DNA of 64,000 nucleotides. Origin: Escherichia coli (lineage in GTDB: Bacteria > Pseudomonadota > Gammaproteobacteria > Enterobacterales > Enterobacteriaceae). The position numbers were made by a program, and so were the translations under genes. Numbering within the stretch: position 1 is the first letter of the stretch; every line of letters begins with the position of its first letter. Under the pieces are notes generated by a model. The model was not told the DNA's origin, searched no databases, and was given only the letters and a program-made list of their open reading frames with translations. The stretch lies in assembly GCF_048403405.1 (NCBI RefSeq), contig NZ_CP183129.1; one strand, given 5' to 3'. Below, one piece after another: positions 4,743-24,583 of the stretch.

Positions 4743-5605
<863 letters not shown>

Positions 5606-9503: not shown

Positions 9504-9538
9504 TGCCGGATGCGGCGCGCCAGCATCGCATCCGGTAT
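9504..9538. repeat. REP (repetitive extragenic palindromic) element
   Basis: GCCGGATGCGGCGCGCCAGCATCGCATCCGGT, typical E. coli REP consensus, downstream of ettA. Confidence 0.8.
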
Positions 9539-19650: not shown

Positions 19651-20667
19651 ATGTCCACATTACGCCTGCTCATTTCTGACTCTTACGACCCGTGGTTTAA
19701 CCTGGCGGTGGAGGAGTGTATTTTTCGCCAGATGCCCGCCACGCAGCGCGTTCTGTTTCTCTGGCGCAATGCCGACACGGTAGTGATTGGTCGCGCACAG
19801 AACCCGTGGAAAGAGTGTAATACCCGGCGGATGGAAGAAGATAACGTCCGCCTGGCGCGGCGCAGTAGCGGTGGCGGCGCGGTGTTCCACGATCTCGGTA
19901 ATACCTGCTTTACCTTTATGGCTGGCAAGCCGGAGTACGATAAAACTATCTCCACGTCGATTGTGCTTAATGCGCTGAACGCGCTCGGCGTCAGCGCCGA
20001 AGCGTCCGGACGTAACGATCTGGTGGTGAAAACCGCCGAAGGCGACCGCAAAGTCTCAGGCTCGGCCTATCGCGAAACCAAAGATCGCGGCTTCCACCAC
20101 GGCACCTTGCTGCTCAATGCCGACCTTAGCCGCCTGGCAAACTATCTCAATCCGGATAAAAAGAAACTGGCGGCGAAAGGCATTACGTCGGTACGTTCCC
20201 GAGTGACCAACCTCACCGAGCTGCTGCCGGGGATCACCCATGAGCAGGTTTGCGAGGCCATAACCGAGGCCTTTTTCGCCCATTATGGCGAGCGCGTGGA
20301 AGCAGAAATCATCTCCCCGGACAAAACGCCAGACTTGCCAAACTTCGCCGAAACCTTTGCCCGCCAGAGTAGCTGGGAATGGAACTTCGGTCAGGCTCCG
20401 GCATTCTCGCATCTGCTGGATGAACGCTTTACCTGGGGCGGTGTGGAACTGCATTTCGACGTTGAAAAAGGCCATATCACCCGCACCCAGGTGTTTACCG
20501 ACAGCCTCAACCCCGCGCCGCTGGAAGCCCTCGCCGGACGACTGCAAGGCTGCCTGTACCGCGCTGACATGCTGCAACAGGAGTGTGAAGCGCTGTTGGT
20601 TGACTTCCCGGAACAGGAAAAAGAGCTACGGGAGTTATCGGCATGGATAGCGGGGGCGGTACGGTAA
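19651..20667 (+). CDS. lplA: lipoate-protein ligase A
   Basis: 338 aa [22 protein letters not shown]... Confidence 0.95.
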
Positions 20668-20698
20668 CTCGCTCATTAAAATATCCAGGGAAGGAAAT

Positions 20699-20926
20699 AT
20701 GATCGATCTGGAGAGTCAGGAGCGGGAGGTTATCAATTTAATGTTCAGCCAGGGTATATCCTGGCTAGCCGCCGTGCGTATCAGGCATAAATTATCGCTT
20801 GCTGAAGTAAGTAAAATGTTAGGTATCTCGATTAATTCTCTAAAACGGATCGAAAAGACGGAACGGCTTAGCTCAAACATCAAAAGAAAATGGCAGGAAT
20901 TTATGGTTGTCCACCAGAGTTGCTGA
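20699..20926 (+). CDS. 75-codon XRE-type HTH ORF at the position K-12 yjjJ occupies; possible remnant
   Basis: HTH-like segment LSLAEVSKMLGISINSLKRIE; only 183 bp separate its stop from the deoD stop, so no room for a full yjjJ. Confidence 0.4.
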   Translation: MIDLESQEREVINLMFSQGISWLAAVRIRHKLSLAEVSKMLGISINSLKRIEKTERLSSNIKRKWQEFMVVHQSC

Positions 20927-21109
20927 TATACCCTTACTGGATGACGGCTGAACATAAATGAATAGATTCATGAATGGATTTTATTTTCTATCCATATGAA
21001 AAATAATAGTAAATCTATAAATCAGTCGCTATTGATGAATAGATACTAAAAAGCCGGAGCAGTCTCCCGTTCCGGCTTCACAAGGCAATCGCCTTTCAGC
21101 GAAACACAA

Positions 21110-21829
21110 TTACTCTTTATCGCCCAGCAGAACGGATTCCAGCGCGATTTTGATCATGTCGTTGAAGGTGGTCTGACGCTCTTCAGCAGTGGTCTGCTCG
21201 TGAGTACGGATATGGTCAGACACGGTGCAGATAGCCAGTGCTTTCGCACCAAACTCTGCAGCCACGCCGTAGATACCAGCCGCTTCCATTTCCACGCCGA
21301 GGATGCCGTATTTTTCCATCACGTCGAACATTTCGCCGTCCGGAGAGTAGAACAGGTCAGCGGAGAACAGGTTACCCACGCGAGCATCAACGCCCAGTGC
21401 TTTAGCCGCGTCTACCGCGTTACGCACCATGTCAAAGTCAGCGATAGCGGCAAAGTCATGGTCTTTAAAACGGATGCGGTTAACTTTGGAATCGGTGCAG
21501 GCACCCATACCGATAACGACGTCGCGCAGTTTTACGTGTGGCAGAACAGCGCCACAGGAACCCACGCGGATAATTTTCTTCACGCCGAAATCGGTGATCA
21601 GTTCTTTGGTGTAGATGGAGCAGGACGGGATACCCATACCGTGACCCATTACGGAAATTTTGCGGCCTTTGTAAGTACCGGTGAAGCCCAGCATACCGCG
21701 AACGTTGTTCACTTCACGGGCATCTTCAAGGAAAGTTTCAGCAATATACTTCGCACGCAGCGGGTCGCCTGGCATCAAAACTACGTCAGCGAAATCGCCC
21801 ATTTCTGCATTAATGTGTGGGGTAGCCAT
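21110..21829 (-). CDS. deoD: purine nucleoside phosphorylase DeoD
   Basis: 239 aa [34 protein letters not shown]... Confidence 0.95.
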
Positions 21830-21845
21830 TGTTTTATCCTTATCA

Positions 21846-21900
21846 ACATGTTTTCACCCTCTCCCTGTGGGAGAGGGCCGGGGTGAGGGCATCAAGCCGC
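21846..21900. repeat. GC-rich palindromic intergenic element between deoB and deoD
   Basis: CACCCTCTCCCTGTGGGAGAGGGCCGGGGTGAGGGC forms a strong hairpin; resembles E. coli intergenic repeat families. Confidence 0.5.
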
Positions 21901-21908
21901 ACCCATTA

Positions 21909-23153
<1,245 letters not shown>

Positions 23154-23183
23154 TCAAATTTAAATGATCAGACCAGTATACCG

Positions 23184-24506
23184 TTATTCACTGATACGAC
23201 GATAGACAGTTGGTGTGCTTTCCGGTGCTTTATCGGCAAGTTTAATTGCCGCTTTCACCGCTTTAGCCGCTTCCTGCCAGCTGTTTTCGTCTTTCGCGTG
23301 GATAACCGCCAGCGGACGCTGACCGTCTACCTGGTCGCCCAGACGCGCCATATCAGTAAAGCCGACGCTGTAATCGATGGTGTCAGATGCCTGACGGCGT
23401 CCGCCGCCCATTGCCACCACTGCCATCCCCAGCGCACGGGTATCCATTTCACTGACAAAACCTTCGGTATCAGCATAGACTGCTTTCGTCAGCATCGCTG
23501 TCGGTAGATACTTCGCGTAGTTCTCAACGAAGTCAGTCGGGCCTTTTTGTGCCGCTACCATACGACCAAAGACTTCTGCCGCTTTACCGTTGTCCAGCAC
23601 CGCCTGCAATTTCGCGCGCGCTTCGGCGTCATCTTTCGCCAGTTTACCGGAGATAAGCATCTCTACGCACAGCGCCATCGTGACATCAAACAGACGCGGG
23701 TTACGATACTCACCCGTCAGGAACTGCACCGCTTCACGAACTTCAACCGCGTTACCTGCACTGGAGGCCAGTACCTGATTCATATCGGTGAGCAGCGCGG
23801 TGGTACGCACGCCAGCGCCGTTAGCTACGCCAACAATCGCTTCGGCAAGGGCTTCAGAAAGTTCGTACGTCGGCATAAACGCGCCGCTACCCACTTTCAC
23901 GTCCATCACCAGCGCATCCAGACCTTCCGCCAGTTTCTTCGCCAGGATCGAGGCAGTGATCAGCGGGATGGAATCCACGGTTGCGGTAATATCACGGGTC
24001 GCGTAGAAACGTTTATCCGCCGGAGCCAGTGAGCTGGTCTGACCGATAATCGCCACGCCGACGTCTTTAATAATTTCGCGGAAACGGTTGTCATCCGGGA
24101 AAATGTCGAAGCCAGGGATGGATTCCAGTTTGTCGAGCGTACCGCCAGTATGACCGAGGCCGCGACCGGAGATCATCGGAATATAGCCGCCGCAGGCAGC
24201 AACCATCGGCCCCAACATCAGCGAAGTGACATCGCCGACGCCGCCGGTGGAATGTTTATCAACAATCGGGCCATTCAGATGCAGGCTTTTCCAGTCGAGA
24301 ACGGTTCCTGAATCTCGCATCGCCATGGTCAGCGAGACACGCTCAGGCATTGTCATATCGTGGAAGAAAATGGTCATCGCGAGGGCGGCAATCTGCCCTT
24401 CGGAGATAGTGTTGTCGCGAATACCGTTGATAAAGAAACGAATTTCTTCATCGCTCAGCGCATGACCATCACGTTTTTTACGAATAATTTCTTGTGCGAG
24501 AAACAA
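23184..24506 (-). CDS. deoA: thymidine phosphorylase DeoA
   Basis: 440 aa from a TTG start ([21 protein letters not shown]...); ORF track extends to 24575. Confidence 0.93.
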
Positions 24507-24583
24507 GGTAACCTCCCGTGGAAAAGAGACGAGGTAATCGGGGAACCGGATGAGCATCGCTGCGTCATCCGGCAAATCAAGCC

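Follow-up and report, generated by a model that had tools for sequence, protein, structure and literature searches.

What is a strong GC-rich hairpin doing between two co-transcribed genes of the deo operon, and does it set the ratio of deoB to deoD expression? The question arises from a 64-kb stretch of Escherichia coli DNA (hereafter the window, meaning the whole stretch that was analysed), in which the first-pass annotation described an intergenic palindrome between deoB and deoD and proposed that it acts as a partial terminator or an mRNA stabiliser. The palindrome is present as described, intergenic and inside the deo operon (Table 1). The minus strand of the window carries the gene order deoC-deoA-deoB-deoD, and 1 kb of the sequence has 100% identity to several E. 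coli chromosomes in which deoB and deoD are annotated. Because the true terminator of the operon lies past deoD, the element is transcribed within deoCABD. K-12 homology ends ~60 nt past this terminator, and the kinase-toxin gene hipH (yjjJ), which in MG1655 lies between deoD and lplA, is absent downstream of deoD (~20700-21050). In strain IAI1, the arrangement downstream of deoD is as in the window, with a short HTH pseudogene remnant.

Table 1. Features of the deoB-deoD region, in coordinates of the window.
Feature	Position	Strand	Basis and remarks
deoB (phosphopentomutase), upstream gene in the transcript	21909..23132	-	ORF list; RefSeq annotation of 100% identical E. coli matches
deoD (purine-nucleoside phosphorylase), downstream gene	21110..21829	-	ORF list; RefSeq annotation of identical E. 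coli matches
deoB-deoD spacer, 79 nt (BoxC allele)	21830..21908	-	Wholly contains the core; the K-12 allele is 56 nt
TMECO/PIT triplex-motif core (the GC-rich palindrome), type B: CCCTCTCCC TGT GGGAGAGGG CCG GGGTGAGGG C	21857..21890	+	Exact consensus match
Full BoxC repeat unit, ~54 bp	21849..21902	+	Alignment of 15 copies; matches at other loci
Predicted RNA hairpin, 10-bp stem, 3-nt loop: GCCCUCUCCC-ACA-GGGAGAGGGU	21856..21878	-	Fold; -18.8 kcal/mol alone
Predicted weaker upstream helix, GGGUG.CGG...CCG..CACCC, including the third block CCCUCACCC	21881..21904	-	Fold
deoD Shine-Dalgarno sequence, AAGGA	21837..21841	-	Free of base pairs in the MFE structure; the hairpin lies ~15 nt 5' of it; conserved in both alleles
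Canonical intrinsic terminator of the operon, after deoD: AAGCCGGA...UCCGGCUUUUU	21045..21079	-	

The element is an ordinary, catalogued copy of the BoxC/PIT/TMECO type B repeat and not a deo-specific control element. The BoxC family was described in the 1990s and re-studied between 2000 and 2015; the survey by Bachellier et al. and the work of Hoyne & Maher reportedly treat it as the BoxC or PIT element of E. coli. TMECO, formerly the BoxC or PIT element, has the consensus CCCTCNCCC N3-6 GGGNGAGGG N3 GGGNGAGGG (Holder et al. 2015, PMC4666352), and its subtypes are set by the second loop, which is TTA in type A and CCG in type B (PMC4666352). This consensus is matched exactly at 21857-21889 on the plus strand of the window, where the three blocks are CCCTCTCCC (21857-21865), GGGAGAGGG (21869-21877), and GGGTGAGGG (21881-21889); as the second loop is CCG, the copy is of type B. 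No match to the consensus occurred in 100 shuffles, and the palindrome pattern, which has one match in the 64-kb window, had none in 100 dinucleotide shuffles. Pattern and similarity searches found no further BoxC copy elsewhere in the 64-kb window, and when 20500-23500 was searched against Rfam with a permissive E-value, only chance-level matches far below the gathering scores came up (mir-320, E = 0.86).

When the 79-nt spacer was compared by blast with 5426 complete E. coli genomes, it matched 27,495 places in 4518 of them (median 6 and up to 14 per genome). Most of these places are at other loci, such as the ilvC-ppiC spacer, which makes the element a dispersed repeat. In mRNA sense, the full unit reads GGGTGCGGCTTGATG-CCCTCACCC-CGG-CCCTCTCCC-ACA-GGGAGAGGG-TGAAAAC. 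Copies at other loci (e.g., ilvC-ppiC) align to spacer positions 7-60, a homology of ~54 bp, and an alignment of 15 copies has GTGCG..CTGATG in common at the left and GAGAAAAC at the right. This length agrees with the 56 and 50 bp given for BoxC in the literature (PMC2267715), and the interval originally picked out (21846-21900) is nearly equal to the full unit. MG1655 carries an identical 34-mer at 164547 and 289246, in the hrpB-mrcB and xynR-argF spacers; these copies are TMECO nos. 1 and 4 of Table S8 (PMC4666352). IAI1 has an identical 79-nt spacer between the end of deoB at 4679529 and the start of deoD at 4679609. From these gene positions, the motif was predicted at 4679581-4679548, exactly where Table S8 lists TMECO no. 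226, and the locus has therefore already been catalogued (Holder 2015). TMECO copy number varies very widely among E. coli strains: IAI1 and W have 29-30 copies, IHE3034 and JJ1886 a single one (PMC4666352 supplement). What stands of the initial description is thus a stable, intergenic, transcribed hairpin; what falls is its standing as a locus-specific deo element, as it is one copy of a dispersed repeat. The window copy shares with the family the exact consensus with a CCG second loop, the ~54-bp length, the intergenic position, the multiplicity of copies, and variability between strains. Nothing structural sets it apart; the difference lies in its position inside an operon, between co-transcribed genes, where it replaces a terminator-like hairpin.

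RNA fold prediction bears out the structural part of the earlier claim. The transcript strand, in which the mRNA carries the C-rich strand of BoxC, is predicted to form a stable structure (-32.1 kcal/mol over 82 nt, z = -3.1), and only 1 of 200 shuffles folds as well. From the predicted hairpin it is 31 nt back to the deoB stop codon and ~15 nt on to the deoD ribosome-binding site, which is unpaired in the MFE structure.

Two alleles of the spacer are found within E. coli. The 79-nt BoxC allele is present in 2489 of the 5426 complete genomes (~46%) and a 56-nt K-12-type hairpin allele in 2934 (54%); 5423 of the 5426 carry one or the other. In MG1655, BoxC is absent, and the spacer holds the hairpin GGGCGGAG-CGUUGA-CUCCGCC followed by UUUGUUAU (positions 4835-4865 of locus L001); its 56 nt fold with -19.9 kcal/mol (z = -3.6). 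The K-12 hairpin is terminator-like, with an 8-bp GC stem followed by CUUUGUUAU, and, judging from this sequence, it might act weakly as a terminator or attenuator within the operon; no report on the function of the K-12-type deoB-deoD hairpin was found in the literature. The hairpin allele is carried by K-12, O157:H7, and the O18:H1 strain CFSAN067215 (as a loop and T-run variant), and, since E. albertii also carries it, it is probably ancestral in Escherichia. When the alleles are aligned, BoxC (GTGCGG...GAAAAC) is found where the other allele has its hairpin and T-run (GCGGAGCGTTGACTCCGCCTTTGTT), and past the swapped stretch the two sequences continue alike with ATGT. Within either allele, the sampled strains vary in loops and flanks, and the stems are unchanged.

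Import of the BoxC allele by recombination was considered and rejected: the flanking coding DNA has only 0-3 mismatches per 100 nt against K-12, right up to the spacer, and this ordinary divergence gives no sign of a large foreign import. BoxC was also rejected as a general replacer of terminator hairpins. In the ilvC-ppiC spacer, the allele without BoxC carries an unrelated 14-nt non-hairpin stretch, and the adjacent bidirectional terminator is retained in both alleles; from this comparison, replacement of terminator hairpins by BoxC is not general.

The history of the site was followed in deoD loci from 80 Enterobacterales species, whose deoB-deoD spacers were extracted, folded, and crudely classified. 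The fold z-score is below -2 in 70% of the 80 species, and a stem-loop of one type or another (simple hairpin, REP, ERIC, or BoxC) is present in 65 of the 80 spacers; the deoB-deoD site has therefore long harboured stem-loops. A simple GC-rich hairpin, in many cases followed by a T-run, is found in 38 species, with clear terminator shapes in Rahnella, Edwardsiella, Hafnia, and Xenorhabdus. REP/BIME elements occur in 11 species, ERIC in 10 (including Citrobacter, Kluyvera, Buttiauxella, Dickeya, and Rahnella), and BoxC in six (loci L011, L015, L021, L032, L039, and L041, of which L015 was counted by eye, the script having classed it as a simple hairpin); 15 species have no stable stem-loop. All three small repeats of enterobacteria, REP/BIME, ERIC, and BoxC, thus turn over at this spacer. 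The BoxC loci of the six species and the window copy have one orientation and a similar left junction.

Several observations in these loci deserve mention in their own right. Some spacers hold paired elements: BoxC with REP in L039, ERIC with REP in L006, L008, and L010, and 1.5 copies of BoxC in L041. Hairpins of the form GGGCGG..CCGCCC, similar to the K-12 allele, are found in Kluyvera, Kosakonia, and Buttiauxella. The spacer of Pseudocitrobacter faecalis (L021, 1420-1500) is nearly identical to the BoxC allele of the window, including the non-repeat right flank TGAAAACAAATTGATAAGGATAAAAC; to judge from the sequence, this likeness could reflect an orthologous old insertion or a lateral exchange of alleles between genera. 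BoxC/TMECO elements also lie right after the deoD stop codon in Buttiauxella (L017, 2227-2395), Pseudocitrobacter (L021, 2282-2314), Enterobacter asburiae (L030, 2236-2268), and Pantoea (L050, 2233-2495), and two of these four loci are inverted pairs of type A and type B. Relatives of Buttiauxella have a simple terminator in that position. The comparison of filled and empty sites downstream of deoD in Enterobacter and Buttiauxella is confounded, as synteny breaks there.

Like BoxC, REP/BIME elements are dispersed GC-rich palindromic intergenic repeats, often lie in operons, and can form stable RNA stem-loops; they share the deoB-deoD spacer across species and, in the window, occupy the deoC-deoA spacer. 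Their consensus is different, however, and REP identity was rejected for the deoB-deoD element: the pattern search (GCCGGAT...ATCCGG, of the GCCGGAT...ATCCGGC type) finds REP at 9505-9535 and 24546-24573, and the motif is absent from the deoB-deoD spacer. The palindrome at 9505-9535, on the plus strand, reads GCCGGATGCGGCGCGCCAGCATCGCATCCGG. The one in the deoC-deoA spacer, on the minus strand, is a single REP element (GCCGGATGACGCAGCGATGCTCATCCGG); the same spacer in MG1655 holds a two-REP BIME and is ~54 nt longer, a second repeat polymorphism in the deo operon. REP elements have a demonstrated role as mRNA 3' stabilisers; to our knowledge, such a role has never been demonstrated for BoxC, and we know of no RAYT-type transposase linked to it. 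ERIC (IRU) is likewise a transcribed, structured intergenic repeat of enterobacteria that occurs in the same spacer, but it is ~127 bp long and unrelated to BoxC in sequence.

The reading that we favour, with a probability of roughly 70%, is that this copy of the repeat is tolerated and that its RNA hairpin acts passively, if at all. Identity, structural potential, polymorphism, and comparative context are direct observations; for the rest, we infer that the element is most likely selfish or neutral. BoxC is a dispersed, GC-rich intergenic repeat of ~54 bp that consists of three 9-nt blocks, and blocks one and two make up a perfect hairpin. At deoB-deoD, it sits where K-12 and E. albertii still have an older, terminator-like hairpin. 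In the deo mRNA, a 10-bp stem-loop of very high stability should separate the deoB stop codon from the deoD ribosome-binding site, and transcription would not be expected to terminate there. The sole probable effect would be passive: the stem-loop, as any stable 3' stem-loop could, may slow 3'-to-5' exonucleases, and the part of the mRNA that contains deoB may be slightly protected after cleavage downstream of the stem-loop. Such an exonuclease-barrier role is plausible for BoxC by analogy with REP elements, for which it is established.

A stronger version of this idea takes the hairpin as a REP-like mRNA stabiliser or processing barrier that creates differential decay of the deoB and deoD parts of the message and in this way sets their ratio. 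This proposal, which was the second half of the initial suggestion, seems to us rather unlikely. It draws on the very high predicted stability of the hairpin, on the frequency of well-folded spacers and stem-loop elements among the 80 species, and on the invariance of the stem among sampled E. coli variants; however, a recent spread of the repeat predicts stem invariance equally well. BoxC copies are generic, found in all kinds of contexts and without orientation bias (PMC4666352), and more than half of E. coli (54%) do without BoxC at deoB-deoD. Literature searches for later functional work on TMECO/BoxC, and for expression, 3'-end, or Term-seq data at deoB-deoD, found nothing relevant.

Holder et al. 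have proposed that the repeat acts as DNA. According to this explanation, the G-rich strand would fold transiently into an intrastrand purine-motif triplex, at which replication or repair would stall, the locus would be a hotspot of small rearrangements, and its 'function' would be genomic instability. A type B oligonucleotide does form an intrastrand purine-motif triplex in vitro, as seen by CD and NMR, and TMECO loci vary more from strain to strain; on the other hand, TMECO in duplex form showed no sign of a triplex, nor did DMS footprinting reveal one in vivo (PMC4666352). The deoB-deoD locus itself is dimorphic within E. coli and turns over between species, as the explanation would have it, but the flanking coding DNA is only 1-3% divergent from K-12, which is ordinary. 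Moreover, REP and ERIC turn over at the same site, and the variability is therefore not specific to the triplex motif. The GC skew of the plus strand of the window is uniformly negative; the G-rich strand is the transcription template here and, going by the skew, probably also the leading-strand template, and it would therefore be the less exposed strand. For this locus, triplex-driven instability is an improbable account.

A further possibility is that the spacer needs a stem-loop and that BoxC took over the job of the ancestral hairpin in ~46% of E. coli. Most Enterobacterales keep a stem-loop here and the alternative allele is terminator-like, which suggests that the site may matter; in particular, the recurrence of stem-loops in 65 of 80 species hints at a selected structure, for which BoxC could be a functional substitute and not a neutral one. 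Since the BoxC stem is stronger and has no U-tract, the two alleles would in that case be a natural regulatory polymorphism, with more read-through into deoD and a different stability of the deoB mRNA 3' end in BoxC carriers. If true, this would be the first demonstrated RNA-level function for BoxC. We consider it quite improbable. The orientation and left junction shared by the BoxC copies are not what purely random insertion predicts; as a side reading, their recurrence across genera might point to targeted insertion and offer a clue to the mobility mechanism of BoxC.

Partial intrinsic termination, the other half of the initial suggestion, would make the hairpin an attenuator that lowers transcription of deoD relative to deoB. 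The element resembles intrinsic terminators and intra-operon attenuators in its perfect GC-rich stem, its short loop, and its position immediately after a stop codon within an operon; moreover, the K-12 allele is terminator-like, and in many further species a hairpin with a T-run is found at this site. Unlike in a terminator, no U-tract stands 3' of the BoxC stem (GAAAACAUG; the tail reads GAAAACAUGUUG), and the true terminator lies past deoD. A scan for promoters and terminators found no site at the element or in the spacer on either strand. In published reporter tests, to the extent that they are summarised in PMC4666352, PIT elements acted neither as promoters nor as terminators and left RNA polymerase unaffected. 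Given the missing U-tract and these negative assays as summarised there, intrinsic termination at BoxC is very improbable, and the terminator claim finds no support.

The idea of a chance or deo-specific palindrome outside any repeat family, which could appeal only to the single copy in the 64-kb window, is refuted by the near-identical copies at other loci, which number in the thousands across E. coli genomes, by the identical 34-mers elsewhere in MG1655, and by the catalogue entry for the locus itself (IAI1 no. 226).

As a discovery, the BoxC copy carries little weight: the family is known, and the locus is in a published catalogue. Its practical consequence is for annotation, where the element should be labelled BoxC/TMECO and not a deo-specific attenuator. 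Mildly novel is that E. coli is divided, at a ratio of ~46:54, between BoxC and a terminator-like hairpin at a position within an operon that holds some stem-loop in most relatives. This split offers a natural experiment on whether repeats of this kind alter the stoichiometry of an operon.
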